32,000 nt of DNA from Fidelibacterota bacterium. GTDB lineage: Bacteria > Fidelibacterota > Fidelibacteria > Fidelibacterales > Fidelibacteraceae. The notes below the pieces were generated by a model that was not told where the DNA came from, did not search any database, and saw only the letters and a program-made list of their open reading frames with translations. Positions 3,261-28,272 of the stretch are shown in pieces. Positions within the stretch are counted from its first letter, which is position 1. Every line of letters starts with the position of its first letter. The stretch is from contig JAGGVO010000041.1 in NCBI GenBank assembly GCA_021157965.1, forward strand, positions 224,119 to 256,118, read 5' to 3'. The translations under genes and the position numbers were made by a program.

Positions 3261-3765
3261 TTTTTTTATCTAACTTTTCAAGAATTTCCCGAACGATGTC
3301 ACGGATGCTTCTTCCGTCGGTTTGAATATAATAATTCGCTTGTTTATAAACAAAAGTTCGTTTGTCCAGAATTTGCTGAATGTGAGCCGGCTGGAGAGGT
3401 TGAGGTAACAGAGGCCTGTTTTCACTCATTTTTACACGCTCCAGGATAGTTTGGGGTTCCGCCTGCAGCCAGATGACCACTCCCGTGGACTTCATCCATT
3501 CCCGGTTTCTTTCGTCCAGAGGAAATCCACCGCCGGTGGCAATGACCATATCAGAGGTATTGGGAAGAGGATCATGTTTTATGTCTCTTTCCAGTTTCCG
3601 GAAAGCCTCTTCACCTTCTGTCCGGAATATTTCCGGAATGCTCTTCCCTGTCTTTTTTTCCAGATAATGGTCCAGATCCAAAAAGGTGCATTTGAGTGAT
3701 TTTGCCAGAGCCTGGCCCACTTCGGTCTTGCCGGTTCCCATCATACCTGTCAGGAAGATGATCAT
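3253..3765 (-). CDS. aroK: shikimate kinase
   Basis: Walker A motif GMMGTGKTEVG at the N-terminus. 170 aa. ATGA stop/start overlap with aroC. Confidence 0.9.
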   Translation of the reverse strand: MIIFLTGMMGTGKTEVGQALAKSLKCTFLDLDHYLEKKTGKSIPEIFRTEGEEAFRKLERDIKHDPLPNTSDMVIATGGGFPLDERNREWMKSTGVVIWLQAEPQTILERVKMSENRPLLPQPLQPAHIQQILDKRTFVYKQANYYIQTDGRSIRDIVREILEKLDKKNA

Positions 3766-5722: not shown

Positions 5723-5725
5723 AAT

Positions 5726-11374: not shown

Positions 11375-11389
11375 CCTGTTGATAATGCA

Positions 11390-11422
11390 GGGACTTTTAG
11401 GAAAAGTCTCAACAAATTTTTT
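11390..11422 (+). terminator. weak candidate rho-independent terminator
   Basis: Stem GGGACTTTT / AAAAGTCTC (one G-U pair) with a 3-nt loop. A T6 run follows after a 6-nt spacer. Begins 16 nt after the stop at 11374. Confidence 0.35.
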
Positions 11423-11460
11423 AATAAAAGGGTTTAAAACTATGATATATAGTTTTTATC

Positions 11461-11489
11461 TTGACTTTCATGTGTTTTGAATTTATATT
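11461..11489 (+). promoter_or_regulatory. candidate sigma70-type promoter of the rotor-stator operon
   Basis: TTGACT (11461-11466), a 17-nt spacer, then TATATT (11484-11489), set in an AT-rich 187-bp intergenic region about 70 nt upstream of the ATG at 11562. Confidence 0.4.
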
Positions 11490-11561
11490 TTTTTAAGTAT
11501 GTATATATGTTGAAAGTTGTTATTCAACAACCGTAAATTCAAAATAAAAAAGGAAAACAGG

Positions 11562-12488
11562 ATGTCCCTCAATCGATGGCTTCGTTTGGGAACCGTTTTG
11601 GTGTTGTTGTCAGGTTGTGCCTGGTTCAGGGGGGGCGAGAGTCCCGAAGGGGACGAAGGACTTGCCGTTGATTCAACGGAAATAGCTTTACAGAATGATT
11701 TAATTCAACAGGAAATGAATGAGATCACGACTTCCGGTACCCGGGATAGTGTTATTCAGGAGCGGGATTATTCCTTTGTTTTGAATGAGCTCTCCTATGA
11801 ATTGAAAAAACAGGGTGCCCGGATCAAACACCTGGAATCTGAGCTGAAAGACCTGAAGGCAAAATCCACCCTCTGGGAGAATCCCCTGAAGATTTATAAT
11901 AAAGAAATCATTCTTCAGAACGGGACCAGCATGTTTGGCAAGATCATGTACCAGGATAGTGATATTTTAAAAGTTCAAACGCTCATCGGGTACTTTGTCC
12001 TTTCCCGTGATGAGGTAGTGCGTATTGTGGATAATATTCCCGCATCTGCTGTTGAAAGCCGCGAAGTTGCGGCGGATCAGGCTTCCGGACAGCCGGTATC
12101 GGTACCGACAGCGGAAACGATTTCTCCTGTTGAATTACCGGAAAGACCCTCACCATCGGCGGTGGATGCAAATTGTATTTTGGTGGGGAACATCCGTGAA
12201 AGCACGGATCCCTCGGGGAATCGCATTTTTTCTGGAGAGGTGAAGAATATAGGTGCCCGTCGGGCTGATTTTGTAAAGATCACATTTGTCTTTCGCATGA
12301 ACTGGAGCGGTGAGACGAAAACCCTGACGACCTTTGTCAAGGGATCCTTTATGAATTATGCCAGTGGTGTTAGCTCTGATGCGGCCTTACTGCCCGGTGC
12401 CACCGGAAGGTTCACATTGAATATTCCGGCATCTTTTGGTACATTTATCGGTTATTCATATAGCATTAACTGGGAGGAATATGATTAA
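11562..12488 (+). CDS. lipoprotein with coiled-coil segment and C-terminal beta-sandwich-like domain
   Basis: Start at the ATG at 11562 (AAGGAAAA upstream). Signal peptide plus lipobox LVLLSGC. Heptad-rich LSYELKKQGARIKHLESELKDLKAK. The C-terminal part has alternating beta-strand patterns (FSGEVKNIGARRADFVKITFVF). No enzymatic motif. Confidence 0.6.
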   Translation: MSLNRWLRLGTVLVLLSGCAWFRGGESPEGDEGLAVDSTEIALQNDLIQQEMNEITTSGTRDSVIQERDYSFVLNELSYELKKQGARIKHLESELKDLKAKSTLWENPLKIYNKEIILQNGTSMFGKIMYQDSDILKVQTLIGYFVLSRDEVVRIVDNIPASAVESREVAADQASGQPVSVPTAETISPVELPERPSPSAVDANCILVGNIRESTDPSGNRIFSGEVKNIGARRADFVKITFVFRMNWSGETKTLTTFVKGSFMNYASGVSSDAALLPGATGRFTLNIPASFGTFIGYSYSINWEEYD

Positions 12489-13422
12489 GCGATTCTCGGC
12501 GTTACCGCATGTGATGATTCCGCTGCTTTTCTCTGTCCTTTTTCTTGCAGCCTGCGGAGGATCCCGTCCGGAAGTTCCTCCGGAGAAACTACAGCGGACC
12601 GAAGATGACCTGCGGAGGCGCGAACAGGAAGTCCAGCAAAAAACCATCGAGATTCTTGATCTGAAAAACCAGATCATTATACTCCAAAGTGAAATCAGTG
12701 AACTGAAATCCAATATTATCGAACTGGAAAGCCATCGTGATTCCCTTCGCTCCAGGCTGATGAATGAAAAAATGTCTGCCGAAGAGCTGGAGGGGATGTT
12801 ATCGGAACTGGACGAAAAAAACCTGGAACTGAAACGACAAAACGAGCTGCTTCAATCGTACCTGAATGCATCGCAGGATTCTATCCTGAAGGCGCTGGAA
12901 ACGGCTGCCGTGAAAGAATCCGAACAAAATCTTTTAAAAACAATCTCCCGGAATGAACCGGTAAAAACCGATACGGCAGTGGGAAAAATCGTTGCCGACA
13001 CAAGCGCTTTGAATGCAGCTATAAGTCCTGTCATGGATCTGACCCAGGATGAATACCTGCAGCGGTATCAGGATGCTCTGGACCTCCTGTTCGACAAACA
13101 ACGCAATAAGGCCATCGAGGAATTCAGGGAATTGATCCGAATTGCCCCGGATAACGATTATTCAGACAATTGCCAATACTGGATTGGTGAAGGGTATTAT
13201 GCACAGGGGCTCTACAGTCGTGCCATTGAGGAATTTGAAAAAGTCAAAACGCTGCCGAACGGCAATAAAGCTGATCATGCCCAATTTAAAATCGGTCTGT
13301 CTTACCTGAAACTGGGACAGAAAGTAGAAGGTCTGGAAGCCTTTAAAAAACTTCTGGAGGAATATCCGAACAGTGAATTGGTCGGCAAGGTCCGGGATAT
13401 GATTAATTCAGGACAGTTCTGA
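12481..13422 (+). CDS. YbgF/CpoB-like coiled-coil + TPR lipoprotein
   Basis: Start at 12481 (GGGAGGA Shine-Dalgarno site, ATGATTAA overlap with the previous stop). Lipobox LFLAACGG. Long coiled coil. C-terminal block NCQYWIGEGYYAQGLYSRAIEEFEKV..KADHAQFKIGLSYLKLGQ..EEYPNSE matches the YbgF/CpoB TPR domain. Confidence 0.7.
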   Translation: MIKRFSALPHVMIPLLFSVLFLAACGGSRPEVPPEKLQRTEDDLRRREQEVQQKTIEILDLKNQIIILQSEISELKSNIIELESHRDSLRSRLMNEKMSAEELEGMLSELDEKNLELKRQNELLQSYLNASQDSILKALETAAVKESEQNLLKTISRNEPVKTDTAVGKIVADTSALNAAISPVMDLTQDEYLQRYQDALDLLFDKQRNKAIEEFRELIRIAPDNDYSDNCQYWIGEGYYAQGLYSRAIEEFEKVKTLPNGNKADHAQFKIGLSYLKLGQKVEGLEAFKKLLEEYPNSELVGKVRDMINSGQF

Positions 13423-13423
13423 T

Positions 13424-14080
13424 ATGAAATTTTTGTGTTTCGTCTGTTCTTTGACATGTTTTGCCACTTTGGGTTTTTCTCAGGACCCTATGCTGGATAT
13501 GGATATGCTTTTTCCTGAACGGTCCGTCAGACAGGATTCTGCCCTGATAAACCTGCAATCTTCAGGAACGGATATGGGAGGGGCCGTCTCTCTGGCGGAA
13601 TTGCAAAAACGTATAGAACGCCTGGAAGAAGAAGTCCGATTGCTTAAAAAAGCCCTGGAAGAACGGCAACAGGTTACAGAAAAAAAGCCTGATGATCCGG
13701 GATTTCCTCTCATTGAGCAGCAACTGTATGCCCGGGCTCTCCGCTATTTTACAGCCGGGGATTATGGAAAGGCATCCGAATTGCTTCGGCAGGTGAGAGA
13801 AAACACACAAGAGAAAGAACTGAACCTCAGCGCCCTCTACTGGCTGGGGGAATGTGCCTTTCGGCAAAACAACTACAATGAAGCCGTGGTGCTTCTCCAG
13901 GAACTGCTTTCCGAAGAGAGTAAAATATTCCGGGAAAATGCCCTGATCCTTGTTGCCATCAGTTTCAGAAATCTCGGAAAACAGGCCGAATCCGAACGCT
14001 ATTTTCAGGCATATCTGGAAGCATACCCCGATTCAAAATATTCGGCCCTCGCCCGGAGAGAATTGAAAAAAAATCAGTGA
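13424..14080 (+). CDS. secreted YbgF/CpoB-like coiled-coil + TPR protein (second copy)
   Basis: Signal peptide MKFLCFVCSLTCFATLGFSQ. Short coiled coil (LQKRIERLEEEVRLLKKALEE). TPR block ALYWLGECAFRQNNYNEAVVLLQELL..AYPDSKYSALA. Starts 1 nt after the previous stop. Confidence 0.65.
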   Translation: MKFLCFVCSLTCFATLGFSQDPMLDMDMLFPERSVRQDSALINLQSSGTDMGGAVSLAELQKRIERLEEEVRLLKKALEERQQVTEKKPDDPGFPLIEQQLYARALRYFTAGDYGKASELLRQVRENTQEKELNLSALYWLGECAFRQNNYNEAVVLLQELLSEESKIFRENALILVAISFRNLGKQAESERYFQAYLEAYPDSKYSALARRELKKNQ

Positions 14081-14097
14081 TAAAAGTGATAAAAAAC

Positions 14098-15438
14098 ATG
14101 AAACAATTAAAATGGCTGTTCCTTCTGTTATGCGTGGTACTGTACGGCCATACGGCCCACGCATCCTCTCAGGTTTCCTTTATGAAACCGGGGCCCATGA
14201 TGCGGGTGCCGTCAAGTTCTGTGGAAGACTCACCCTATCTTTTCCGGACCGGTTTCGGTTCCGATCTGTACGGAATCGAAGATTTTCGCATGTCCAAAGG
14301 GGTCTTTTTCGATATGGACATTATCAATTCACTGAATGTGGGATTCTCCGTGATCCAGCCCTATGATGTTACCGCCATGAATACATCCGATGTGGAATAC
14401 GGCTTTCACCTGACGAAACGGGTTATGGCCTATGGGGATATTTCCATGGCTGTGGGACTTTGGGATTTTGTCCTGAGGAATATCGATGACGAAATGCAGG
14501 TGGATAATCAGAACTTTTCCTTTTTTGCTGTGATTTCTACTGAAAAGATGATGGGAGAAACGGGTTTTAATACATATATGGGTGTGGGTAGCGGTGGACT
14601 TTCCCGGGGTTTTTCAAGTAATGATACTACCACAAGTATAGGGGTTTTTGCCGGTTTCCTGTTCAGGACCGGTATGATGGCAGATCGGGGAGGGATTAAC
14701 CTGATTGGTGAATTTGACGGAGGGGGATTGAATCTGGGGATGGAAATCCCCCTGACGACAGAATACAGGTTGAATCTGGGTATCTCCCAATTACAGTGGC
14801 TGCCGAATTTTGGGAAGGAAAATGAGACCGATCTGCCGGCCATATCCATGGGCCTCACCCTGGCCATCCCCCGAAGTTTGCCGGGACGGGCATCACGGCG
14901 CAGCGGTATAGCGGTTGGTACGGGTGAGAATACAGGAACATCGGCGACAGAATCGGAATACCGTGCCAAACTGGATTCCATCCTGAGAGAAGCAGATGCC
15001 ACCATTATGGGCCTCCGGGATTCCCTGAGGATATCTGTCCAGACGGTGGACGACCTGAACAATACCATCGCCCTTCTCCGTCAGCAGAAATCCGTCCTGG
15101 AAGATTCTCTCCAATCGGTGAAACTTCAGCAGCATGTGATGCAGCAAAATATCAATCTGGCCCTGAAGCATTTGAGCCGGAGTCTCCGGTATTTTTATGC
15201 CGGCGATTATATTCAGGCGCTGAATGAGGTGGATATTGCCATCCAGCTCAATCCCAATCTTTCTCTTGCCTACGCACGCCGGGGGTCGATTTATTACAAA
15301 ATGGGAGATATTCAAAGGGCGGCGATCAACTGGAATCTGGCCCTGCAGATCGACCCCGAATATGATGATGTCCGCAATATTCTGAAGGTCCTCCAGGAAA
15401 CCCGCTCTCGTACAGGGTCCTTCATGAACAATAACTAA
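14098..15438 (+). CDS. secreted beta-barrel-like domain + coiled coil + TPR fusion protein
   Basis: The ATG at 14098 gives the signal peptide MKQLKWLFLLLCVVLYGHTAHASS. A GTG at 14077 overlapping the previous TGA is the alternative start. The first ~250 aa are Gly/aromatic-rich alternating strands (YGFHLTKRVMAYGDISMAVGLWDF, GINLIGEFDGGGLNLGMEI, YRLNLGISQLQW). A coiled coil follows, then TPRs (YFYAGDYIQALNEVDIAIQLNPN, AYARRGSIYYKMGD). Confidence 0.6.
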   Translation: MKQLKWLFLLLCVVLYGHTAHASSQVSFMKPGPMMRVPSSSVEDSPYLFRTGFGSDLYGIEDFRMSKGVFFDMDIINSLNVGFSVIQPYDVTAMNTSDVEYGFHLTKRVMAYGDISMAVGLWDFVLRNIDDEMQVDNQNFSFFAVISTEKMMGETGFNTYMGVGSGGLSRGFSSNDTTTSIGVFAGFLFRTGMMADRGGINLIGEFDGGGLNLGMEIPLTTEYRLNLGISQLQWLPNFGKENETDLPAISMGLTLAIPRSLPGRASRRSGIAVGTGENTGTSATESEYRAKLDSILREADATIMGLRDSLRISVQTVDDLNNTIALLRQQKSVLEDSLQSVKLQQHVMQQNINLALKHLSRSLRYFYAGDYIQALNEVDIAIQLNPNLSLAYARRGSIYYKMGDIQRAAINWNLALQIDPEYDDVRNILKVLQETRSRTGSFMNNN

Positions 15439-15447
15439 GGAGTCTGA

Positions 15448-16242
15448 ATGGATTTTGCAACCATCTTAGGGATTTTTATGGGCCTGGGACTGATCTTTTT
15501 TGGAATTACACTCCTTACACAGGATTATCAGATGTTTTGGTCCCTGCCCTCCCTTGCCATTGTTTTGGGAGGATCCCTTGCCGCCACACTGATTGCCTTT
15601 CCCCTTCACGAAGTCGGCCGCGTTTTTAAGGTGATTGGCATTGTCTTCAGAAAAGAACGGCGGGATATGCAAACGCTGGTCCGCCAGGTTACGGAACTGG
15701 CGGCTTTTGCCCGGCGGGGTCCAACAGAACTTGAGAAGCACATTGAAGAGGTGAAACATCCCTTTTTGAAGGATGGTATTCAGCTTGTGATTGACGGCTA
15801 TAGTGATGCTGATATCCGGGAAATCCTCACGTTGCGGATTGTAAACCGTGAACAGCGTGAAAAAGGGGAAGTGAATGTTGTAAAAACCATGGGAAAACTA
15901 TCCCCTGCTTTTGGTATGATCGGAACCCTTATCGGATTGGTTGTGATGCTATATGGCATGAGTGTAAGCGATGCGTCGGGCGATATGGCGGCTCAGCTTG
16001 GAAGAGGGATGGGTGCGGCCATTGTGACAACCTTCTACGGGGCTATTCTGGCGAATCTCTTTTTCAATCCAGCTGCCGCGAAAATCGATTCCCGTATTCA
16101 GAAAGCTTCCATGCTTCAACTGATGCTCATCGAAGGTGTTTGTCTTCTCTATCACCGGAAACATCCCCTCATTGTCCGGGAAAAGCTGAATTCCTTTCTC
16201 CCCCCCCGGGACTGGATCCGTGAAGAAGAACGAAAAGGCTGA
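15448..16242 (+). CDS. motA: flagellar-type stator protein MotA/PomA
   Basis: MDFATILGIFMGLGLIFFGI N-terminus. Four TM segments. Cytoplasmic loop ARRGPTELEKHIEEVKHPFLKDGIQLVIDGYSD aligns with the PomA/MotA loop. Conserved channel prolines SPAFGMIGTLIGLV and FFNPAAAKI. AAGGAG Shine-Dalgarno site. Confidence 0.88.
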   Translation: MDFATILGIFMGLGLIFFGITLLTQDYQMFWSLPSLAIVLGGSLAATLIAFPLHEVGRVFKVIGIVFRKERRDMQTLVRQVTELAAFARRGPTELEKHIEEVKHPFLKDGIQLVIDGYSDADIREILTLRIVNREQREKGEVNVVKTMGKLSPAFGMIGTLIGLVVMLYGMSVSDASGDMAAQLGRGMGAAIVTTFYGAILANLFFNPAAAKIDSRIQKASMLQLMLIEGVCLLYHRKHPLIVREKLNSFLPPRDWIREEERKG

Positions 16243-16901
16243 TGGAAAAAACAAAGAAAAAAATACCCCTTCCCCCTGAAGAGACGGATTCGGAAGAGTG
16301 GCTTGTTACCTATTCGGATATCATGACACTGCTCATGACTTTTTTCGTATTGCTTTTTTCCATGTCCACCATCGACCCTGTGAAAATTGAACAGTTTGGT
16401 GAGGCGATGGGAAAGGAACTGGGAGTCAAGACCTCTGAAAGAACCGGCCGGGTCTCCCTTGCCCAGATTGACCGGGACGTGAAGGAGATTGTCAACGAAG
16501 AAAACTTAAACGAATATGTGGAAGTCACCCATTCCTACAGAGGGGTGACTATCTCGATTGTGGCTGATATCCTGTTTACCCGGGGAAGTGCCGAGCTGAA
16601 TCCCCGGGTCTATTCGATTCTTAACAAATTTATTCCGAAGATTCAAAATTCCATCTATCAGATTGCTGTGGAGGGACATACAGACAGTGATCCCATCCAT
16701 TCGGATAAATATCCGTCAAACTGGGAATTGTCTGCTGCCAGAGCCTCGCAGGTTGTCAATTATTATATTTCACAAGGCATTGATCCGGAACGTTTCAGGG
16801 CCATTGGTTTTGCTCATACCCGGCCTAAAAAACCAAATACAAGTCCGGAAAACAAGAGCCAGAACCGCCGGGTTGAAATAACATTCCTGGCAATATCTTA
16901 A
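16242..16901 (+). CDS. motB: stator protein MotB with OmpA-like peptidoglycan-binding domain
   Basis: WLVTYSDIMTLLMTFFVLLF plug/TM segment with the channel Asp (D26, nt 16317-16319). C-terminal OmpA-like block VEGHTDSDPI..NWELSAARASQV..NRRVEI. TGATG overlap with motA. Confidence 0.88.
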   Translation: MEKTKKKIPLPPEETDSEEWLVTYSDIMTLLMTFFVLLFSMSTIDPVKIEQFGEAMGKELGVKTSERTGRVSLAQIDRDVKEIVNEENLNEYVEVTHSYRGVTISIVADILFTRGSAELNPRVYSILNKFIPKIQNSIYQIAVEGHTDSDPIHSDKYPSNWELSAARASQVVNYYISQGIDPERFRAIGFAHTRPKKPNTSPENKSQNRRVEITFLAIS

Positions 16902-16916
16902 TAAAGGAGAGCTACA

Positions 16917-18470
16917 ATGAATTGTCGGAATCGCATGTGTTTAACTCTGGCAATAATTCTGTTAACATCAGCTATGCTGAGTGGTGAATCCCCGAATTAT
17001 CTGTCCCAGAAACTCGCACTCGAACAGGCACTCCAGAATAAAATTTCACAGGCTGTAGAACGCATTCTCGGGAATAATCATTTTATTGTTGATGTGAAAG
17101 CAGATTTGGATTTTGTTCCCGATCAGCGCGTTGAGGAAGTGTATGAACCGGCGGTACCGGGACGTGCACTTGTACAACCGGCTCCTGAAGCCGAAAGTTC
17201 CCGGGAAAGGGACAGGGCCTACGAAGAAGAATACAATGAAATTCTCCCCGGCATACCTGCGCGGATTGGCGACCGCGGATTGGATATCCTGACAGAAGAG
17301 CTTCCGTCAGATACTTCCCGTATCCGCGAGGAGCAAACAGCCGTTCTGCCGGGAGTTGAGAATATTGAACCGGAGAGGCTCAAAAGCCGTTCGGTTGCCC
17401 GTTCTGTTCCCCTGATTCCGAAAGTCAGGAAACTGGACATCAGCATCATTTTAAAGGAAGGCATCGAGCCGGATCTGGTGGAATCCATTCGTCAGGTGGC
17501 AATGATTGCCTCCCATTTCGACCGCTCCCGGGGAGATATGCTGAGTATTATGACAACGACTTTCAGGGATGACAAGCTGATGGCCGGTGCGGAAACCGGA
17601 GTAATACCGGGAGATGTTGAGTATCAGCCATCCCGCGAAGAACAGGAACGGACCGATGAAACTCAGGAACTGATTCGCCAAATCCAGGATCAGATTGAAC
17701 GGCTTTCACAACAGCAGCAGAGGCAGGCGCCCCGGAGCAATGAACCCACACCAACGGAAAACATGCTGCTTAAAATCATTGATAAGCTCAATACCCGTCA
17801 GTCCCTTGCCGATGATCTGGAAACACAGAAGATGATTACGGAGCAGAAGCTCCGGCTTGAAATGCTGGGACGCGATACTACCCGATTGCAGGAACTCCGG
17901 GATGAAATAGCAGCCCTGAAACTTCAGCTGGCAACCCGGGAAATGGCTGTTGAAGACCGGGAAAGTACACGGGCTGCATCAGACAGTATGCTTCGGGAAA
18001 AAGAAGAACTGGAAGAGGCCATTGCGGAAAAAATCGCCCTCCTCTCGGAGACGCAAAAAGAGCTTATGGACATGCAAAAGGCTCAAATCCCCTGGTGGTT
18101 CTGGGGGCTTCTGGCTGCTTTGCTTGCTGTTGTCATTGTGCTGGTTGTACTGATTCTGAACCGCGGCAGAGTGCGCCGTCAGGAGGAAGAAGCTCCGAAA
18201 CCGGAACCGGCAGCCAGCGAGGATGCCCTCCGTGAAAAGATTCTCAGGGAATTGCGGGAAAGCAAGAAAGAGAGCAAACTTGAGCGGGAACCGGATCAGG
18301 GATCCGATATGGCTGAAAAGCGGGCGGAGCTGGAAGGAATCCGGAAAAATATCGTCAATATGAGTGTAGCCAACCCCGATACTGCCAGCAAGATTATCCG
18401 GGATTGGATGGAAGAAGATGAAACGCCCGCAGACCAGGCGGAAGAAAAAGGAGAACGGAAAAATGAGTGA
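16917..18470 (+). CDS. FliF-like ring protein: RBM3-like domain + long coiled coil + TM helix + FliG-binding-like tail (RBM1/RBM2 absent)
   Basis: N-terminal hydrophobic segment. LEQALQNKISQAVERILGNNHFIVDVKADLDF resembles the start of FliF RBM3 (LEQRVEQILSPIVGNGNVHAQVTAQLDF). KLDISIILKEG..IRQVAMIASHFDRSRGDMLSIMTTTF resembles its end (LSVAVVVN..GFSDKRGDTLNVVNSPF). About 165 aa of coiled coil follow, then TM IPWWFWGLLAALLAVVIVLVVLIL. The tail ASKIIRDWMEEDE resembles the C-terminal IRQWM FliG-binding helix of FliF as I recall it. Confidence 0.65.
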   Translation: MNCRNRMCLTLAIILLTSAMLSGESPNYLSQKLALEQALQNKISQAVERILGNNHFIVDVKADLDFVPDQRVEEVYEPAVPGRALVQPAPEAESSRERDRAYEEEYNEILPGIPARIGDRGLDILTEELPSDTSRIREEQTAVLPGVENIEPERLKSRSVARSVPLIPKVRKLDISIILKEGIEPDLVESIRQVAMIASHFDRSRGDMLSIMTTTFRDDKLMAGAETGVIPGDVEYQPSREEQERTDETQELIRQIQDQIERLSQQQQRQAPRSNEPTPTENMLLKIIDKLNTRQSLADDLETQKMITEQKLRLEMLGRDTTRLQELRDEIAALKLQLATREMAVEDRESTRAASDSMLREKEELEEAIAEKIALLSETQKELMDMQKAQIPWWFWGLLAALLAVVIVLVVLILNRGRVRRQEEEAPKPEPAASEDALREKILRELRESKKESKLEREPDQGSDMAEKRAELEGIRKNIVNMSVANPDTASKIIRDWMEEDETPADQAEEKGERKNE

Positions 18471-19398
18471 TCCTCAAAAACTTTCCAATCTGGACAGGGC
18501 CGCAATCATTTATAAAATATTGGGGGACAATTTATCCGTCTCCCTTTTCAGGCACCTTTCCCAGGCGCAGTTGACTAAATTGCGGCGCCATGCCGAAACG
18601 CTGACTAAAGTGCCTTTCGATCTGAAAAGAAAGGTTCTGGAAGAGTATTATTTTCAGCTTATGTCTGAAAAAATCCGGTCCGTCAGCGACGGGGACCAGA
18701 AAGTGCTTTTTGATTTCTTAAAACCTATGTCTTCTGATCAAATCAAATACCTGCTGGAGCCGGAAAGCGAACTGGTAAAAGCCCTTGTCCTGAGCCAGCT
18801 GAGCATTGAAGTACAGGTGGATGTCATAAAAAACATGGAAGAAGATGAACGGGCACGGGTTTTAATACAGATGAATGATATCGATAAAATCCCTTATGAA
18901 GGGATTATCAATATTGAGAACGATATTCGCGAAAAATCCCGGCTGGTTCCCCATAAAGCCCATTTTAACAAAGGAGGATCCAAACAGATTGCTGATATCC
19001 TGAGTAAGCTGGAGCCGGATTTTGAAGAACAGTTTGTAAGTCATGTACAAAATGAAGACCCGGAACTGGCCCGTGATCTGGCGAAATATTACATACCTTT
19101 TGACAGTTTCGACAAACTTCCGGTGGATGTGGTCAGGGAGGCGCTGAAAAGCGTGGAACTGAATGATCTGGCCCTGGCCCTGAAGGGAATGAGCGAAGAA
19201 TTTGTCACCTATATTCTGGGAAATCTGCCACAGAAAACCCAGATAATGCTGGAAGATGAAATAAAGGATGTGGAAGGTCCCCAGCCCCGGCGGAAAGTTG
19301 AAAGTGCACGGCGCAAACTGACCCAGGCCGTGAAACAACTTGCTGCCGAGGGTAAATTTGATATTGAGGATTTCCTCGATACGGATATGGTGGAATAA
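18463..19398 (+). CDS. fliG: FliG-like rotor/switch protein
   Basis: Start at the ATG at 18463 (AAAGGAGAA Shine-Dalgarno site, ATGAGTGA overlap with the upstream stop). Collinear with FliG throughout: LDRAAIIYKILG, LLEPESELVKALVLSQL (EHPQ region), NKGGSKQIADILSKLEP (Gly-Gly linker), EDPELA, LNDLALALKGMSEE, torque helix LPQKTQIMLEDEI, GPQPRRKVESARRKLTQAVKQLAAEGKFDI. Confidence 0.85.
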   Translation: MSDPQKLSNLDRAAIIYKILGDNLSVSLFRHLSQAQLTKLRRHAETLTKVPFDLKRKVLEEYYFQLMSEKIRSVSDGDQKVLFDFLKPMSSDQIKYLLEPESELVKALVLSQLSIEVQVDVIKNMEEDERARVLIQMNDIDKIPYEGIINIENDIREKSRLVPHKAHFNKGGSKQIADILSKLEPDFEEQFVSHVQNEDPELARDLAKYYIPFDSFDKLPVDVVREALKSVELNDLALALKGMSEEFVTYILGNLPQKTQIMLEDEIKDVEGPQPRRKVESARRKLTQAVKQLAAEGKFDIEDFLDTDMVE

Positions 19399-19429
19399 AA
19401 GCCGGAGATCTGATAAAAAGATATCTTAT

Positions 19430-19462
19430 GCCGGACGGGGTGTTTCCTGTCCGGCATTTTTT
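19430..19462 (+). terminator. rho-independent terminator ending the rotor-stator operon
   Basis: GC-rich hairpin GCCGGACGGGG / CCTGTCCGGC with a 5-nt loop, followed by A and a T6 run. Begins 32 nt after the fliG-like stop. Confidence 0.7.
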
Positions 19463-19488
19463 CGCATTCAGGTAAAGAGGAGATAACA

Positions 19489-19926
19489 ATGTCCCGCTTT
19501 GAAGAAATTATCGAATTTGCCATTGATCAGGAAATAAAAGCTGCCCGCCGTTATGAACGTCTTGCCGACCTCGTGGAGAATCCCCGTGCCCGCGAAATGC
19601 TCCTCCGGATAAAAACCATGGAAGAAGAACACCGGAAAAAACTGGAAAATCTGGATATCAGTGAGTTTCTGAATTATACAGACAAACCGATCCCGGATCT
19701 CCATCTGAGTGATGAAAAGGATATTCAATCTAAATTAAAGGATTTGACGCCGGAAGATATCTTGGTTATGGCAGATGATTTTGAAAATGATGCCCGTGAA
19801 CTTTATCTGACACTGGCAGACCGGGTACCTGTAGGATCGGCAACCCGGGATCTTTTTCTGAAACTTGCCGAAGAAGAGGCCCGGCATAAATACGACATTG
19901 AATCACAATTAAAATCCGGAATTTAA
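19489..19926 (+). CDS. ferritin-like diiron four-helix-bundle protein (rubrerythrin-family domain)
   Basis: Four-helix pattern with E (DQEIKAARRYE), ExxH (EEEHRKK), E (ENDARELY) and ExxH (EEARH). 145 aa. GAGGAG Shine-Dalgarno site. Confidence 0.6.
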   Translation: MSRFEEIIEFAIDQEIKAARRYERLADLVENPRAREMLLRIKTMEEEHRKKLENLDISEFLNYTDKPIPDLHLSDEKDIQSKLKDLTPEDILVMADDFENDARELYLTLADRVPVGSATRDLFLKLAEEEARHKYDIESQLKSGI

Positions 19927-22316: not shown

Positions 22317-23072
22317 ATGAAGTATTGCGTAAAAATATCCCTCCTGTTTTTGCTTTTGGTCGGCTCACTGGCGGCACAGTTCGTCCCGGCACCGGTTCAG
22401 TTAATTAATACCCCGACTGTCGCAACCCTGGCACGGGGATCTTACCTGACTGATTTACGTTTTACCACCAATGGCGGGGTGCTGATCGGGGCAACAGTAG
22501 GTCTGACAGATCGTTTTTCCATGGGTATATCCTATGGAGGATCCAACATTATCGGCAATGAAAATATCACCTGGAATCCCCAGCCCGGTGTGAGTGTCAA
22601 ATATCGACTTATTGATGAAGGAATGAAAAAACCGGGTGTCTCTATGGGATTTTCCTCTCAGGGCTATGGGGCTTATACCGACGGGAATTATGAAATTCCT
22701 TCCTCCGGCTTTTATTCTGTCCTCAGCAAAAACTGGCATTTTATCGGCAATACAAGCCTTCATGCAGGGGCTAATTATTCCCTGGAACAGCCAGACAGCA
22801 CCTATATCCCCTCTTTCTTTGCCGGGGCTGCCATTGAACTAAATCCTCAATTCTCTATTATGATCGAATATGATGCCGCCCTGAATTATGAAAAATTTTC
22901 AGATTTAAAAAAATTCAAAATTTCCGGCGGGTACGGTTTTCTGAATGCCGGTGTCCGCGTTGGCATTACGGAAAATCTCTACCTGGAAGTGGATCTGAAC
23001 AATCTTATCTGGGGCGAAAATGTGGAATCCTTTAACCGTGAAATTAAATTGATGTATTTTGATATCTTCTGA
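22317..23072 (+). CDS. outer-membrane beta-barrel protein (possibly YjbH-like)
   Basis: Signal peptide MKYCVKISLLFLLLVGSLAAQ. Alternating amphipathic strands. C-terminal aromatic residue (..KLMYFDIF). The N-terminal INTPTVATLARGSY resembles the start of YjbH-type barrels, from memory only. Confidence 0.6.
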   Translation: MKYCVKISLLFLLLVGSLAAQFVPAPVQLINTPTVATLARGSYLTDLRFTTNGGVLIGATVGLTDRFSMGISYGGSNIIGNENITWNPQPGVSVKYRLIDEGMKKPGVSMGFSSQGYGAYTDGNYEIPSSGFYSVLSKNWHFIGNTSLHAGANYSLEQPDSTYIPSFFAGAAIELNPQFSIMIEYDAALNYEKFSDLKKFKISGGYGFLNAGVRVGITENLYLEVDLNNLIWGENVESFNREIKLMYFDIF

Positions 23073-23073
23073 C

Positions 23074-24726
23074 ATGAAATCCTTTCAGCTTTCTTCCGAG
23101 ATTCTTGCTTCCAAATCCAAAGATGAACTGATAGATATTATCAGAATCATTCAGGACCGGGTCAATGTTTTTGTCTCGGTAGGGACATCCCTCAGTACGG
23201 AAAAAAACCAGGATGTCCTCCTGGAAAATATTGTAACCTATGCGAAAAAATTAACCGGTGCCGATGCCGCAACGCTTTATATGATGTCGGAAGATGAAAA
23301 AAAACTCAGGTTTAGCATTGTCCATACAGATTCCATGAATATCCGGATGGGGGGGACATCGGGAAATCCCATCGATTGGTATCCGGTGAAATTGTATAAT
23401 GAGGATGGATCGCCCTATCTGGAGATGGTTGCGGCGTATGTTGCATTGAAGAAGGAAACCCTGAACTTTGAAGATGTGTACGATGTAAAAGATTTTAATT
23501 TTACCGGTACACGGCAGTTTGACCGAAAAACCGGTTACCGGACTCAGTCCATGCTGGCTCTGCCAATGCTGAACCATGTAAATGAAGTGATTGGTGTACT
23601 CCAATTAATCAATGCAAAAGACGAATCGGGGAACACCATTGCCTTCTGTCCTGAATTCCAGGCGCTGACGGAAGCTCTGGCCAGTCAGGCCGCCGTGGCC
23701 ATTACGGAAAACCGTCTTATCAATGGACTTGAAGAATTATTGAATTCCATCATCCGTGTAATTGCTTCGGCGATTGATGAAAAATCCAAATATACAAGTG
23801 GTCACATTGAACGGGTGGCGAAACTGGCAGTGTATCTGGCACAACAGATTTCTGAAAGCCGGGACGGTGTTTACAAAGATGTCCGCTACAGTGACGAGAA
23901 AATTGAGGAGATCCGTTTTGCCGGCCTTCTTCACGATATCGGTAAGATTACCACACCGGAATACGTGGTGGATAAATCCACAAAACTGGAAACCATTTAT
24001 GACAGGATCCGGACGATTTTTCTCCGTTTTGAATTGCTGAAAAAAGATCGTGAAATAGAGATGTGGAAGGCTTTAGCAGGAACGCCGCAAGATGATTCTT
24101 CCAGAGCTGAACGGGAAAATCTGATGAAAGAGCTGGAAGAAGAAATCCGGAAAATCAGTGAGGATTATGCCTTTATTCAGCGGATGAATACAGGGGGTGA
24201 GTTTCTCAAACCCGAATACAAGAACCGGATTTGCGATATTGCACGGTATACTGTTACGATAGATGGAAAAAGTACGCCTATCTTAACGGATGATGAGATT
24301 CTTAATCTGCATATTTCCAAAGGTACACTGACCGAGGAAGAACGGCAAATCATTAATAATCATGCGGTTGTCACTGATAAAATGCTCTCACAGCTTCCAT
24401 TTCCCAAGAAATTGAAAAATGTTCCCGAGTATGCTGCCAACCACCATGAACGCATGGACGGTTCGGGATATCCCAAGGGACTTAAAGCGGAAGATTTGGA
24501 ATTGCCGGCGCGTATCATGGCCATGGCCGATATTTTTGAAGCCTTAACAGCGCCGGACAGACCCTACAAAAAAGGGAAAACACTTTCTGAAGCCATGAAA
24601 ATCATGGAATTTATGGTGAAGGATTATCATATCGATCCGGATCTGTTTGCCTTTTTCAAGGAAGCTAAAGTATACCGCTGGTATGCAGAAAAATTCATGA
24701 ATCCCGAACAAATTGATATGGATTAG
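23074..24726 (+). CDS. GAF domain-containing HD-GYP c-di-GMP phosphodiesterase
   Basis: HD-GYP signature: GHIERVAKLA, FAGLLHDIGKI, NHHERMDGSGYPKGL, ADIFEALTAPDRPYKK. The N-terminal ~200 aa is GAF-like (ADAATLYMM..LRF..QSMLALPM..VIGVLQLIN). About a 100-aa insert lies between the HD and GYP halves. The ATG at 23074 is preferred over the TTG at 23059. Confidence 0.85.
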   Translation: MKSFQLSSEILASKSKDELIDIIRIIQDRVNVFVSVGTSLSTEKNQDVLLENIVTYAKKLTGADAATLYMMSEDEKKLRFSIVHTDSMNIRMGGTSGNPIDWYPVKLYNEDGSPYLEMVAAYVALKKETLNFEDVYDVKDFNFTGTRQFDRKTGYRTQSMLALPMLNHVNEVIGVLQLINAKDESGNTIAFCPEFQALTEALASQAAVAITENRLINGLEELLNSIIRVIASAIDEKSKYTSGHIERVAKLAVYLAQQISESRDGVYKDVRYSDEKIEEIRFAGLLHDIGKITTPEYVVDKSTKLETIYDRIRTIFLRFELLKKDREIEMWKALAGTPQDDSSRAERENLMKELEEEIRKISEDYAFIQRMNTGGEFLKPEYKNRICDIARYTVTIDGKSTPILTDDEILNLHISKGTLTEEERQIINNHAVVTDKMLSQLPFPKKLKNVPEYAANHHERMDGSGYPKGLKAEDLELPARIMAMADIFEALTAPDRPYKKGKTLSEAMKIMEFMVKDYHIDPDLFAFFKEAKVYRWYAEKFMNPEQIDMD

Positions 24727-24855: not shown

Positions 24856-26022
24856 ATGAGTTATACACGTATTCTCATTCCGGATGCATATCACACCTAT
24901 CTTGGCATCCCCTATGATGAAGAAATTGTTCCCTTCCCCAATTTTGGTACGGTTCTGATTCAACACCGGCGCTATCTGCCGGATAAACCGGCATTCATCT
25001 GGGAAAATGTCCCGCCTGTTACATTTAAAGAATGGAGTTCCGGCGTCAGACTTCTGTCTGGCGCTCTAAAACAAGCTGGGCTGGATTTTTCCTCGCGTGT
25101 ACGCCTGAACCTGGACCTGGGTCCCCGAACCCTCTTCCTCTTTCATGCCCTGCTGGACGGGGGCATTCCGGCAATTTTAACAACCGATCCGGATACCGGT
25201 TTCACATTTCCCCTGCCGGGTGATGTGATCATGCCGGGAGAATTTATCCTGAAGGGTCCCGGGGATATATCCGGTTCGATTCATTCCGTCGTTGACACCT
25301 TGCTTCATACCCGTCCTGAAGCTCCGGATCCCTTTGAAGTTCCCTATATCTCCCTGGACCATTCCGCACTCTTCTGTTTTGATGAAGAGATGTGGTATGA
25401 GTTCACTCAGTATAATCTCCTTTCTGCGGCTCAATCCGTGGGGAAAGAACTCTCCCTGTTCCGGGACGGGGAAACTCTTTTTGCCAAATCCGCCGCAGAT
25501 TTGGCAGATTGGCTTTTCGCTGCCCTTGCATCCTTTTATTACGGATCGACGACGCGCTTTGAAACGGATATGGACGCACAAAAGGCGGAAAATATCCTCA
25601 AAGAGAGAAAAACACAGGTTCTGATTCCTGATATTTCCCGGACCGGTATATTCTCACCGGACCTGACAACCGGAGAAGTTCTCCGGGATGCTGCGATCCT
25701 CTGCAGAGATCCACGGATCGGGAAAATTCCGGAAACCCTTTCTTTTCCCTGGCGCTGTTTCTGGACAGCTCCGGTCTTTGCCGGCAATGGGGTTTTTGTA
25801 TCCGAAAAAAAAGGGACTTGTTGCAAAGGACTGGATTTCATCGTATCCGGGTCACCAGACAGAGGACGATTGATGGTGCTGGGGCATTCCGTTCCCCATG
25901 CTGTCTGGCTGGAAGAACCGGAGCATTGGGAATCCCAATTCAAAAAACACCTGGAGCTCCCCTTTTATGTCCGCTGTGAAGACCCGCAGCGCAGGACTTT
26001 CATTGTCCTTGATGATCAATGA
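24856..26022 (+). CDS. hypothetical protein (remote, degenerate resemblance to adenylate-forming enzyme N-terminus)
   Basis: 388-aa ORF. The segment DKPAFIWENVPPVTFKEWSSGVRLLSGALKQAGLDFSSRV resembles the substrate-announcing N-terminus of acyl-CoA ligases. I see no SGTTG-type P-loop. No clear Shine-Dalgarno site. Confidence 0.45.
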   Translation: MSYTRILIPDAYHTYLGIPYDEEIVPFPNFGTVLIQHRRYLPDKPAFIWENVPPVTFKEWSSGVRLLSGALKQAGLDFSSRVRLNLDLGPRTLFLFHALLDGGIPAILTTDPDTGFTFPLPGDVIMPGEFILKGPGDISGSIHSVVDTLLHTRPEAPDPFEVPYISLDHSALFCFDEEMWYEFTQYNLLSAAQSVGKELSLFRDGETLFAKSAADLADWLFAALASFYYGSTTRFETDMDAQKAENILKERKTQVLIPDISRTGIFSPDLTTGEVLRDAAILCRDPRIGKIPETLSFPWRCFWTAPVFAGNGVFVSEKKGTCCKGLDFIVSGSPDRGRLMVLGHSVPHAVWLEEPEHWESQFKKHLELPFYVRCEDPQRRTFIVLDDQ

Positions 26023-26061: not shown

Positions 26062-26880
26062 ATGGATATTGCAACACTTTTCGGCTTACTTATCGGACTT
26101 GGACTCATTGCCTTTGGCATGATGGATGAATCATTCAGCATTCCTCACACCTTTCTGAACTGGAATGCCATGGCGGTTGTGCTGGGAGGGACCCTGGCCG
26201 CCACAATGATCAATTATCCCTTCAAACAATTTCTCGGCCTTTTGAAAGTGACGGGAAAAGCTTTTGCCAGACATCACCAGGAAAGTCTGAAAACCATTCA
26301 TCAGCTTGTGGGTTACAGCAAGCTGATTCGTGCAAAGGGCCTGCTTTCCCTGGAAGACCAACTGCCGGAGATGAAGAACCGTTTCATGCAAACGGGTATT
26401 GAAATGGCACTTATCGAAAAAGACAGCAAAAAACTTGAGCGATTTTTAAGAAGTGAACTGACCAATATGGTTATTCGCCACAAGAACGGCCAGGAGATGT
26501 TTTATAATATGGGATCCTATGCTCCGGCATTCGGGCTCTTGGGGACCGTGATGGGTCTTATTCTGATGATGACCCAGCAGAGTCAGGTCACCGGAGTGAT
26601 GACTTTTGCCCAGGACACCCAAGTGATGATGACATCCCTGCTAAGTGGCATGGGAAGAGCCCTGGTAACCACATTTTACGGAGTTCTCCTTGCAAACCTT
26701 ATTTTTATCCCTATTGGTGGAAAACTGAAAACCCGGTCCGATGAAGAAATCTTCATTAACGAAATCATCCTGACAGGCATATTAAGTCTTCACGCCCGGG
26801 AACATCCCCTGATTATGGAAGAAAAACTTCTGACCTTTATTCCCAAAGCTGAAAAAGATTTTCTGAAACACCATGACTGA
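26062..26880 (+). CDS. motA: flagellar-type stator protein MotA/PomA, second copy
   Basis: MDIATLFGLLIGLGLIAFGM. Loop IRAKGLLSLEDQ is very close to PomA ARKDGLLALEGQ. APAFGLLGTVMGLI and FIPIGGKL channel prolines. 272 aa. Confidence 0.88.
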   Translation: MDIATLFGLLIGLGLIAFGMMDESFSIPHTFLNWNAMAVVLGGTLAATMINYPFKQFLGLLKVTGKAFARHHQESLKTIHQLVGYSKLIRAKGLLSLEDQLPEMKNRFMQTGIEMALIEKDSKKLERFLRSELTNMVIRHKNGQEMFYNMGSYAPAFGLLGTVMGLILMMTQQSQVTGVMTFAQDTQVMMTSLLSGMGRALVTTFYGVLLANLIFIPIGGKLKTRSDEEIFINEIILTGILSLHAREHPLIMEEKLLTFIPKAEKDFLKHHD

Positions 26881-27571
26881 TGACAGGATGCGTTATAAAA
26901 CATTCGACAGAGACGGCTGGAAAATTATATACGCCTCCCTGCTTACGGGGATTCTGGCCTTTTTCCTCCTCTTTGTCAGTCGGGCGACCAATGAAGCGAC
27001 ATCCGTATTCAGTTTTTCAGACAATCTGACAGCCCGGATCGGCCGTCAGCTGGAGCAGATCAGGGAACGGGAAGGAATGGATTGGCTGTATATTGAAAAC
27101 ACAGGAACAAAAGGGATTAAAATTCTCATTCCCTCCCGGGTGGAAAACCAGCCCTTTTTTAATTCAGCATCGGATGAAATCAACCCCAATTTTTATCCCT
27201 ATCTGGCACAGCTTGTGAGTCTGATCAATGAAACCGACCTTCCCCTGCTGGAGGCGATGTACCGGGAACAGATTGCCCGGATTGAATCCTATGGATACTA
27301 CATCGATACGGATATCCGAATTGAAGGACATTCGGATCAGCAACCTATCCGAACACAACGGTTTTCGGATAATTGGGATCTGTCCACAGCCAGGGCTTAT
27401 CAGGTGATGCAATATCTGCAATACCGCCTGCCTGTGCCGGAGGATTATTTTTCGATTGCGGGATACGGCTCCTTTCATCCTTTGCACGATGTCAGAAACT
27501 GGGACGAGAACCGCCGGGTCGAAATCTATATTAAGGTGAATATGATAAACAGGCGGGGCGGAACATCATGA
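26873..27571 (+). CDS. MotB-like OmpA-domain protein lacking the channel aspartate
   Basis: TM segment WKIIYASLLTGILAFFLLF, where Ser22 (nt 26936-26938) occupies the invariant Asp position. OmpA-like C-terminus IEGHSDQQPI..NWDLSTARAYQV..NRRVEIYI. Overlaps the motA stop. Confidence 0.8.
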   Translation: MTDDRMRYKTFDRDGWKIIYASLLTGILAFFLLFVSRATNEATSVFSFSDNLTARIGRQLEQIREREGMDWLYIENTGTKGIKILIPSRVENQPFFNSASDEINPNFYPYLAQLVSLINETDLPLLEAMYREQIARIESYGYYIDTDIRIEGHSDQQPIRTQRFSDNWDLSTARAYQVMQYLQYRLPVPEDYFSIAGYGSFHPLHDVRNWDENRRVEIYIKVNMINRRGGTS

Positions 27572-28272
27572 AACTTTTTTCCACACGGCAGGACACCTTG
27601 TCCAGTCGTGAAAGGGCTGTCCGCTCCGGGTGGATTCTCTCTTTTGGTGATATCATGACCCTTTTGCTGACATTTTTCATCATGATGATTGCCCGTCAGT
27701 CAGGTGAAATCAGCCGGATCCACCGGTGGACCCATGACCGGCTGCAAGAAACCGGCCGGGAAATCCGTTTAGCCATTGAAAAGCAGGATTTGTCAGCCTT
27801 TACTGTGAACTATCATTCAAAAGGCGTACAGATTACCATCAGCGGTGAATCGCTGTTTAATCCGGGAGAGGCAGAACCCCTTCCGGAGTTCAGGCGTCAA
27901 CTGACAGATCTGGCACATGCGATTCGCACTCTGGATATTCTGGATTTGACTCAAACGGAACATCGGCAGTTGCTTCGGGAATTGCGGGAAAACGGCCTGG
28001 CCTGGCAGGTGGAAATCCGCATAGAGGGACATACGGATAATGTCCCCTTAGGTCCTAATGTCCGGTTTAGGGACAACTGGGAATTGAGCGCCGCCCGGGC
28101 CCAGAGTGTGATGCGGATTCTACATCAGGAAACAGAAATTCCTGAGGAACGTTTTGCCGTGGCTGGCTTTGGTGAGTTCAACCCTGTGGCGTCCAACGAG
28201 ACTGAATCGGGGAGAAACCGGAACCGGCGTGTAGAAATCTATATTGATGCTTCCATTCAAAAAATTCAGTAA
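27568..28272 (+). CDS. motB: MotB-like OmpA-domain stator protein (Asp present)
   Basis: WILSFGDIMTLLLTFFIMMIA with D28 (nt 27649-27651). IEGHTDNVPL..NWELSAARAQSV..NRRVEIYI. ATGA overlap with the preceding gene. Confidence 0.85.
   Translation: MKLFSTRQDTLSSRERAVRSGWILSFGDIMTLLLTFFIMMIARQSGEISRIHRWTHDRLQETGREIRLAIEKQDLSAFTVNYHSKGVQITISGESLFNPGEAEPLPEFRRQLTDLAHAIRTLDILDLTQTEHRQLLRELRENGLAWQVEIRIEGHTDNVPLGPNVRFRDNWELSAARAQSVMRILHQETEIPEERFAVAGFGEFNPVASNETESGRNRNRRVEIYIDASIQKIQ

Follow-up and report, generated by a model that had tools for sequence, protein, structure and literature searches.

To our knowledge, no role other than that of torque-generating core of the bacterial flagellum is known for FliG, FliF and MotAB. 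In that motor, MotA5B2 units rotate and push FliG, whose torque-helix charges (K264, R281, D288, D289 and R297 in E. coli numbering) face MotA. The N domain of FliG co-folds with the FliF tail 1:1, the EHPQR motif (E125, H126, P127, Q128 and R160 in E. coli FliG) binds FliM, and FliG is thought to require FliM and FliN for formation of the C-ring. Within FliF, RBM3 is the ring-forming domain that builds the S-ring, and RBM1 and RBM2 surround and hold the type III export gate. Here we analysed a FliG-like gene and the eight-gene operon that ends with it (11517-19398, + strand) in a stretch of 32,000 nt, hereafter the window, from a Fidelibacterota bacterium (GenBank assembly GCA_021157965.1, contig JAGGVO010000041.1, positions 224,119 to 256,118), a phylum also recorded as Marinimicrobia, Neomarinimicrobiota or SAR406. 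We consider the gene product probably, although by no means certainly, the cytoplasmic rotor subunit of an ion-driven motor that is assembled from flagellar-type components, yet is non-flagellar and has no switch.

Flagellar-family genes without a filament have been described in non-flagellated bacteria, including FliF/FliI/FlhA in Chlamydiota, the partial set of Lysobacter and the 'half a motor' cases, and in ~11% of species classed as non-motile, one or more rotor proteins are retained although there is no filament, the role of these proteins having been left open (PMC12199754). Those sets are centred on the export apparatus or are scattered remnants, whereas the present locus holds rotor and stator only, in one phylum-conserved operon together with non-flagellar partners. 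The searched literature contained no description of a non-flagellar FliF/FliG/MotAB system, nor of flagella in Marinimicrobia.

The open reading frame (ORF) at 18463-19398 (+ strand) encodes 311 aa. A GGAG lies 9 nt before the ATG at 18463, and this start is backed by homologues of 310–314 aa that begin at the equivalent point. Pfam detected FliG_N (4.3e-13), FliG_M (2e-9) and FliG_C (8.4e-23) in that order, a sequence search of the PDB gave T. maritima FliG (1lkv, 3e-17), and an AlphaFold2 (AF2) model (predicted local distance difference test, pLDDT, 75.7) matched Salmonella FliG in a Foldseek search of the PDB (8umx_B, 5.5e-11). Each domain of the model superposed on FliG N, M or C structures at 1.2–3.2 Å. 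The collinearity with the three FliG domains and the Gly-Gly hinge, which a preliminary description of the stretch had read from the sequence alone, were borne out by Pfam, PDB and fold, and the product is a genuine but unusual three-domain FliG homologue. It shares ~20% identity with canonical FliG, is ~20–30 residues shorter, and scores far below the equivalog cut-offs (TIGR00207, 96.9 bits versus 226.7; NF004260, 31.7 versus 550). With flagellar FliG (E. coli/Salmonella, T. maritima 1lkv, Salmonella 8umx/8umd) it has in common the domain order, the fold, the hinge, the ALKG Lys (K264), the basic torque-helix residue at R281 and the acidic pair at D288/D289, a FliF tail motif as putative partner of the N domain, and a gene position directly after fliF. 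It differs in its sub-cut-off score, a degenerate EHPQR, a Pro at the R297 position, its separate clade, and the lack of fliM/fliN or fliH/I/J nearby; taken as a flagellar FliG, the protein therefore falls outside on equivalog score, EHPQR, gene context and tree position.

Residue registers were taken from a MAFFT alignment of 168 FliGs (E. coli, 97 canonical proteins, 39 Marinimicrobia orthologues and 31 fusion proteins described below), and HMMER alignment to 1lkv yielded identical registers. Both the hinge motif NKGGSKQIADIL (G171/G172, equivalent to E. coli G194/G195) and the motif DLALALKGMSEE (K241, equivalent to K264) are present. The torque helix LPQKTQIMLEDEI lies at residues 255–267, as first located, and the AF2 model contains a predicted helix at residues 257–269. 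K258 corresponds to R281, as had been proposed, and E264, D265 and E266 correspond to R287, D288 and D289, respectively, so that the acidic pair is D265/E266 and not E264/D265, which was one residue off. P275 aligns to E. coli R297, and the adjoining R276 is invariant in the clade. The block PQ[KR]xQI[ML][LM]EDE...EGPQPR[RK]KVE, which contains this helix, is the most conserved stretch of the Marinimicrobia FliG clade, and P256, Q260, I261, E264, D265 and E266 are invariant in an alignment of homologues (A1). All 39 Marinimicrobia orthologues carry K at K264 and R or K at R281, 33 have D at D288, 33 have E at D289, and G194/G195 are kept; the charges are therefore on the torque helix and near-invariant.

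The surface that binds FliM in flagella gave a different picture. In the alignment, the EHPQR motif is lost except for its Glu. EHPQ aligns to E101-S102-E103-L104 (ESEL) and R160 to Q136; the preliminary description had recognized that the motif is altered, and its reading as EPES was two residues out of register. Among the 39 orthologues, E is universal (39/39), H126 is replaced by T or S, P is kept in 29, Q128 is replaced by R, V or K, and R160 is E in 35, whereas canonical FliGs retain H in 77, P in 94, Q in 96 and R in 95 of 97. The two register shifts leave standing the earlier suggestion that the torque contacts are preserved while the FliM surface is altered, in a rotor that is switch-less or has another partner, and the present results support it. 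Beyond that description, the analysis revealed a reduced FliF partner immediately upstream and an operon found across the phylum.

The FliF-like gene overlaps the fliG-like gene by 8 nt. Its product consists of an N-terminal transmembrane (TM) or signal sequence, an RBM3-like domain with a variable insert, a periplasmic coiled coil of ~175 aa, a second TM segment (TM2) and a cytoplasmic tail. The match to FliF was limited to the RBM3/PF08345 part (family profile versus residues 241–439 of Salmonella FliF 6scn, E 1e-6), and TIGR00206 (FliF) gave 26.8 bits versus a cut-off of 129.75. Because the RBM3 match begins ~10 residues past the first hydrophobic segment, there is no sequence room for RBM1 and RBM2 between the two, and both domains are absent. 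As in flagellar FliF (Salmonella 6scn/6sd1), two hydrophobic segments flank the periplasmic region, the RBM3-type domain is split by an insert, and the C-terminal tail appears to carry the motif [DN]P..A..I[IR].W[ML], which binds FliG_N in flagella. Unlike flagellar FliF, the protein lacks RBM1/RBM2, has a variable Pro/Glu-rich insert in place of the beta-collar, and contains the additional ~175 coiled-coil residues between RBM3 and TM2; the equivalent short FliF of other phyla is fused to FliG in one chain. The tail motif NPDTASKIIRDWMEED is conserved in the FliF-like family (P487, D488, A490, S491, W497 and E500 invariant), and its alignment to DPRVVALVIRQWMSND of Salmonella and PELAAQVVKNWMND of Vibrio, tails that bind FliG, consists only of weak secondary stretches within the profile match (E 18 and ~4000). 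A phmmer search of the PDB with the 63-residue tail alone returned nothing relevant. The tail is the putative binding partner, cognate to the N domain of the FliG-like protein. The coiled-coil insert (residues 217–392) varies between genomes, being shorter in a protein of 447 aa (locus L001), while another (L055) reaches 614 aa overall, and the proteobacterial fusions lack it. Were the N-terminal segment cleaved off as a signal peptide, the coiled coil could serve as a stalk that places the RBM3 ring far away from the inner membrane.

The two genes preceding fliF encode MotA and MotB, which PDB and NCBIfam matches assign to the flagellar stator type; the NCBIfam scores lie under the equivalog cut-offs (179 versus 394 for MotP), which makes this a family-level assignment. 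The best PDB matches of the operon MotA were C. sporogenes MotA (8ucs, 2.4e-44) and PomA (1.4e-32). Like MotAB/PomAB of the flagellar ion transporter class (PMC12505986), the pair combines a four-TM MotA with a charged cytoplasmic loop and a MotB with a plug, a channel Asp and an OmpA-like domain. It differs in being encoded with a rotor without switch complex or axial parts, and in the MotA loop, where one residue is deleted between the conserved Arg and the conserved Glu. The MotA equivalents of R90, E98, P173 and P222 are invariant (33/33 orthologues), as is the channel Asp of MotB (YSDIMTLL; 35/35). A second stator set further downstream in the window has a MotA that also matched 8ucs (5.6e-44); it gave a score with the tolQ profile (E 0.0019), whereas the operon MotA gave none. 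Both MotA copies keep the charged loop, as had been observed earlier, and have flagellar MotA/PomA as best structure matches (8ucs, ~2e-44). The second set departs from MotAB/PomAB in having two MotB paralogues, whose distinctness suggests a heterodimeric B subunit; such a set was seen again near the operon only in locus L006. A 388-aa ORF upstream of it (24856-26022) matched no Pfam family.

No FliM or FliN was found in the window by Pfam scans of 30 of its large ORFs or by phmmer searches with E. coli FliM and FliN against all ORFs of at least 60 aa. In addition, 32 flagellar and chemotaxis proteins of E. coli were used as phmmer queries for every ORF in the window and in 47 related loci (48 loci, 771 kb, ~±10 kb per genome). 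None of FliE/H/I/J/K/L/M/N/O/P/Q/R, FlgA-L or FlhA/B was detected in these neighbourhoods, fliF-fliG was never followed by fliH/fliI/fliJ, and the absence of a FliM/FliN partner near the gene, as previously claimed for the window, extends to the 47 related neighbourhoods. The matches were to FliF, FliG, MotA and MotB, with three exceptions: CheW and methyl-accepting chemotaxis proteins (MCPs) in a single locus, receiver domains in a second, and a spurious FlgD. The FlgD match, in L015, was rejected as a type IX secretion C-terminal sorting domain and not a hook protein, and the CheY-like matches, in L024, were rejected as an ordinary receiver protein and hybrid kinases.

The close homologues of the FliG-like protein are ~310 aa long, share 43–97% identity with it and belong to Marinimicrobia where named, after which identity falls sharply to ~21% for canonical FliGs. 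When one genome per GTDB species was scanned, 42 loci were recovered at 31–97% FliG identity, whose named records were all Marinimicrobia/Neomarinimicrobiota/Fidelibacterota except for one 3-kb contig binned as an archaeon. Every locus of sufficient length showed the order lipoprotein, TPR protein (one or two), barrel-TPR protein, MotA, MotB, FliF-like and FliG-like, and the most divergent loci retained lipoprotein, barrel-TPR, MotA, MotB, FliF and FliG. A pelagic SAR406 contig, reached via a homologue of the barrel-TPR protein, carries a matching cluster. The ratio of nonsynonymous to synonymous substitution rates (dN/dS), calculated for the window genes versus two relatives at dS ~0.65, was 0.02–0.03 for the FliG-like gene, the lowest in the operon, followed by MotA (0.04), MotB (0.05), the FliF-like protein (0.09) and the barrel-TPR protein (0.10–0.12). 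By these measures, the operon is phylum-wide and under purifying selection.

In an exhaustive profile search, ~30 of the best 150 matches, ranked just after the Marinimicrobia proteins, were proteins of 580–720 aa with a whole FliG at the C-terminus. Their N-terminal halves contain a signal/TM segment, an RBM3-like domain (YscJ_FliF_C in P0120; E 1e-9 to 1e-16 with the FliF-like profile) and a second TM segment, and several have a tail-like motif before FliG_N. Because of this layout in combination with the C-terminal FliG, they are natural short-FliF::FliG fusions. Named sources were Saccharospirillaceae/Pseudomonadales, Gammaproteobacteria, a Deltaproteobacteria metagenome-assembled genome (MAG) and Pseudomonadota, and the annotation of the proteins is either hypothetical or an automatic FliG assignment. 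Six fused loci contain (a ~355-aa unassigned protein), a TPR protein and the fusion, with MotA and MotB next in the three longest (L051, L053 and L054); in the others, MotAB does not adjoin the fusion or the contig is too short to show it. No flagellar genes were called in these six loci, which are small gene clusters in proteobacterial contigs. The TPR protein beside the fusions shows homology specifically to the TPR end of the barrel-TPR protein of Marinimicrobia, with E values from 1e-12 to 1e-24 in five loci and of 4.5e-5 in the remaining one, and MotA and MotB of the fused loci scored ~160–200 bits versus the Marinimicrobia profiles. In both the Marinimicrobia and the fusion FliGs, the Arg at R160 is lost, mostly to Glu, and H126 and Q128 are lacking. 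In a neighbour-joining (NJ) tree of 70 proteins (15 Marinimicrobia FliGs, 18 fusion FliGs, P0079 and 36 canonical FliGs), the Marinimicrobia and fusion FliGs together with P0079, an unfused non-canonical marine FliG of 342 aa, were split from the canonical FliGs in 100 of 100 bootstraps. Three further observations concern the surroundings of the fusions: in L049, the gene after the fusion encodes a TraF_2/PorP-like outer-membrane barrel, a MoxR-DUF58-VWA set follows MotB in L053, and in L054 the protein of 352 aa encoded upstream of the TPR gene (8243-9301) gave a weak, sub-threshold match (8.5e-4) to FlgO, a flagellar outer-membrane-associated protein of Vibrio.

The genes at 11517-19398, all on the + strand, were read as one operon because they are tightly spaced or overlapping and are bracketed by a promoter-like site and a terminator-like hairpin (Table 1). 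The first four encode envelope proteins. For the gene-1 lipoprotein, no Pfam family was matched; an orthologue occupies the equal position in every Marinimicrobia locus of sufficient length, and a homologue search of the proteobacterial fused loci detected none. The position of the CpoB/YbgF-like lipoprotein (gene 2, whose real start is probably the ATG near 12478) is conserved across related loci, and the second CpoB/YbgF-like protein (gene 3) is found in most, but not all, orthologous loci. The AF2 model of the barrel-TPR protein (gene 4) had a pLDDT of 68 overall and >90 in the TPR; in Foldseek, the TPR gave strong matches, and the beta region weakly matched the outer-membrane barrels OpcA, FapF and PelB, which points to a probable outer-membrane barrel. 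This protein has 1320 homologues at E ≤ 1e-5; the homologue that led to the pelagic contig is also recorded in Tara Oceans data. The window protein is 100% identical to DRP86_04285 of a Candidatus Neomarinimicrobiota MAG.

Table 1. Features of the rotor-stator operon, the second stator set of the window and the fused loci of other genomes
Feature	Position	Strand	Description
Promoter-like site TTGACT-17-TATATT	11461..11489	+	ahead of operon gene 1; best sigma-70-type match within 11200-19700 (10/12); consensus match only
Gene 1, lipoprotein, fold unassigned	11517..12488	+	323 aa; lipobox LLSGC; coiled coil and beta-rich C-terminus
Gene 2, CpoB/YbgF-like lipoprotein	12436..13422	+	coiled coil and C-terminal TPR; lipobox FLAAC; TIGR02795 tol_pal_ybgF 8.6e-20, under cut-off; Pfam TPR_6, YfiO
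Gene 3, second CpoB/YbgF-like TPR protein	13424..14080	+	218 aa; coiled-coil/TPR; secreted, non-lipidated; TIGR02795 5.3e-15, under cut-off; Pfam TPR families
Gene 4, secreted barrel-TPR protein	14077..15438	+	453 aa; ~13 beta strands, 85-residue helix and C-terminal TPR in the AF2 model
Gene 5, MotA, flagellar-type stator A subunit	15448..16242	+	Pfam MotA_ExbB 7.9e-25
Gene 6, MotB, stator B subunit	16242..16901	+	Pfam MotB_plug 5.3e-19, OmpA 1.2e-19 (peptidoglycan-binding domain)
Gene 7, reduced FliF	16917..18470	+	517 aa; Pfam YscJ_FliF_C 4.5e-7 at residues 48-216
Gene 8, FliG-like rotor protein	18463..19398	+	311 aa; Pfam, PDB, AF2 fold
Torque helix LPQKTQIMLEDEI	19225..19263	+	residues 255-267 of the FliG-like protein
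Terminator-like hairpin	19428..19457	+	13 pairs, 8 G-C, then T run; 30 nt past the fliG-like stop; strongest such site in the region
Second stator set	26062..28272	+	MotA 26062-26880; MotB paralogues 26873-27571 and 27568-28272; Pfam
Fused loci	L051 10001-13624; L053 9191-13503; L054 8243-13443; L049 3575-8715; L048 3196-7338

An inner-membrane ion motor encoded with periplasmic TPR/coiled-coil and outer-membrane parts is also the arrangement of Tol-Pal (TolQRA-TolB-Pal-CpoB), Agl-Glt gliding and GldLM/PorLM (type IX), and two operon proteins resemble CpoB of Tol-Pal. The motors of those systems each act on one protein that spans the periplasm (TolA, GltG/J or GldM), none uses a FliG/FliF ring, and the operon stator is of the flagellar and not the TolQ/ExbB class; the likeness is one of overall logic only. 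Pfam and NCBIfam matched no TolA, TolB or Pal family in the operon, and they gave no Agl-Glt/GldLM matches save a weak Tgl TPR, no dedicated profiles having been run for the latter systems. In several flagellar motors, TPR proteins serve as stator scaffolds (PMC13023049), and some of the operon TPR proteins may do likewise.

The remaining window contains an aromatic amino-acid operon and housekeeping genes in addition to the second stator set. Just upstream of the rotor-stator operon lies a gene of the bacterial eRF1-like kind (baeRF family 10 with eRF1 domain 3; 10244-11374, + strand), and a baeRF family 10 gene occupies the matching position in ~28 related loci (e.g., L001 1313-2467 and L003 2264-3406). 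Between the two stator loci is a GAF plus HD_5 (HD-GYP-type) protein (23059-24726, + strand), a possible cyclic-di-GMP phosphodiesterase. In the aromatic amino-acid operon (1700-9334), a single ORF (7008-8315, - strand) joins PDH_N (prephenate dehydrogenase) and PDT (prephenate dehydratase) domains.

The reading of the operon as an ion-driven rotor follows from the intact stator-facing surface of FliG together with the intact rotor-facing residues of MotA and ion-path residues of MotB. In the proposed mechanism, peptidoglycan-anchored stator units of the MotA5B2 type would use ion flow to push a FliG ring hanging from a FliF ring in the inner membrane, the 1:1 pairing of FliG_N with the FliF tail being echoed, we infer, by the natural fusions. 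Given the loss of EHPQR and the lack of FliM/FliN in the loci, the ring would be switch-less, with no CheY-based direction switching, and given the absence of RBM1/RBM2, it would hold no export gate and no secretion channel. Force or rotation would pass via periplasmic FliF (the RBM3 ring plus, in Marinimicrobia, the long coiled coil) to the TPR and outer-membrane partners, and candidate outputs are surface movement, Tol-Pal-like remodelling of the envelope or outer membrane, and transport. Whether the FliF/FliG assembly actually rotates is, in our estimation, an evenly balanced question. More tentatively still, and at a likelihood we would place appreciably below that, the operon may represent a flagellum-independent rotary motor in which a ring of reduced FliF and FliG is turned one way by MotAB and coupled to TPR/outer-membrane proteins, occurring in Marinimicrobia/SAR406 and as the proteobacterial fusions, and constituting a lineage sister to the core of the flagellar motor, whether as an early branch or as a survivor of the rotor-stator module that preceded the flagellum.

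Other readings of the FliG-like gene were considered. We attach practically no probability to an MgtE-N-type or other ARM-like protein in place of FliG. It is suggested by a weak Pfam MgtE_N match (6.6e-7, 30.2 bits), which covers residues 81–139, part of the M domain only, whereas the three FliG domains occur in order with better scores and the fold search that returned FliG at 5.5e-11 placed MgtE structures only at E > 1. Because of this partial match, the MgtE folds at E > 1 and the lack of further domains, such as CBS or the MgtE membrane domain, the identity was rejected; the neighbours are FliF-like, MotA and MotB, and in the comparison of FliG with MgtE-N that the preliminary description had proposed, Pfam and fold both gave the FliG type. 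A decaying, functionless remnant of an ancestral flagellum would accord with the retention of one or more rotor proteins, in the absence of a filament, by ~11% of species classed as non-motile (PMC12199754), but the ORFs are intact, the gene order is constant in all of the 42-genome loci long enough to show it, down to 31% identity, the functional residues are invariant, and the non-flagellar partners that were gained are themselves conserved. On synteny and the dN/dS of 0.02–0.03, this reading was rejected as very improbable. The gene could also encode an ordinary but divergent flagellar FliG, with fliM/fliN and the export, rod, hook and filament genes elsewhere and the TPR proteins acting as stator scaffolds like PflA/PflB, MotC/MotK or FlcA/B. 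MotA, MotB, FliF and FliG are all flagellar families, TPR scaffolds of stators are known in several motors (PMC13023049), MCP/CheW genes adjoin the operon in one genome, and the flagellar search covered neighbourhoods of ~±10 kb. We nevertheless regard this as improbable, given a FliF-like protein without the domains that hold the export gate, the loss of EHPQR with R160 changed to Glu in 35 of 39 orthologues, FliG and FliF equivalog scores far under cut-off, the lack of fliH/fliI/fliJ after fliF-fliG and of any other flagellar gene in the 48 loci, the clade separate from canonical FliG, and fused modules in small proteobacterial clusters without flagellar genes. In addition, the sole cultured member of the phylum is non-motile (PMC11652737), and two phylum-wide genomic papers make no mention of flagella, motility or chemotaxis.

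The alternative with a larger, though still minor, share of probability is a static inner-membrane platform of FliF and FliG that recruits MotAB, whose energy would serve Tol-Pal-like tethering or remodelling, or signalling, via the CpoB-like TPR and outer-membrane proteins. The two CpoB/YbgF-like proteins, the peptidoglycan binding of MotB, the lack of an axial structure to turn and the variation of the torque-helix charges in the fused family are all in keeping with a platform of this kind. However, the residues of the moving contact form the most conserved part of the Marinimicrobia FliG, their MotA partner residues are invariant, RBM3 is ring-forming and, from what is known of MotAB, a 5:2 stator pushing a ring of identical sites would be expected to turn it unless the ring were held. 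Several points also weigh against the switch-less, non-flagellar motor that we favour. Rotation, ring formation and the outer-membrane link are each inferred, and fliM, fliN and axial genes could lie elsewhere in the genomes, beyond the ~±10 kb neighbourhoods. In L015 (11015-19877), a series of TPR protein, MCP (dCache), CheW, porin, MCP (4HB), CheW and seven-transmembrane/PAS kinase genes directly follows the FliG-like gene, so that, by gene content, some members have chemosensory genes adjoining a motor that lacks FliM, the normal target of CheY. In the fusions, both K264 and the acidic pair show little conservation, and torque generation may therefore not be general to the wider family. The barrel model is of moderate confidence (pLDDT 55–79) with weak Foldseek matches, the NJ tree is distance-based, with saturated distances and unrooted without an outgroup, and the non-motile isolate is not among the 42 operon-bearing loci.

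The operon retains the interface between rotor and stator and dispenses with switch, export gate and axial parts; if the motor reading is true, the core of the flagellar motor would be useful, or would work, on its own. The operon would then be a natural minimal system for the study of torque generation and would bear on the evolutionary assembly of the flagellar motor, and it provides a defined, testable gene set for the question of filament-less rotor proteins (PMC12199754). SAR406 is among the most abundant bacterial groups of the deep ocean and has almost no experimental biology, and an envelope motor in this group could matter for meeting particles or for envelope upkeep.

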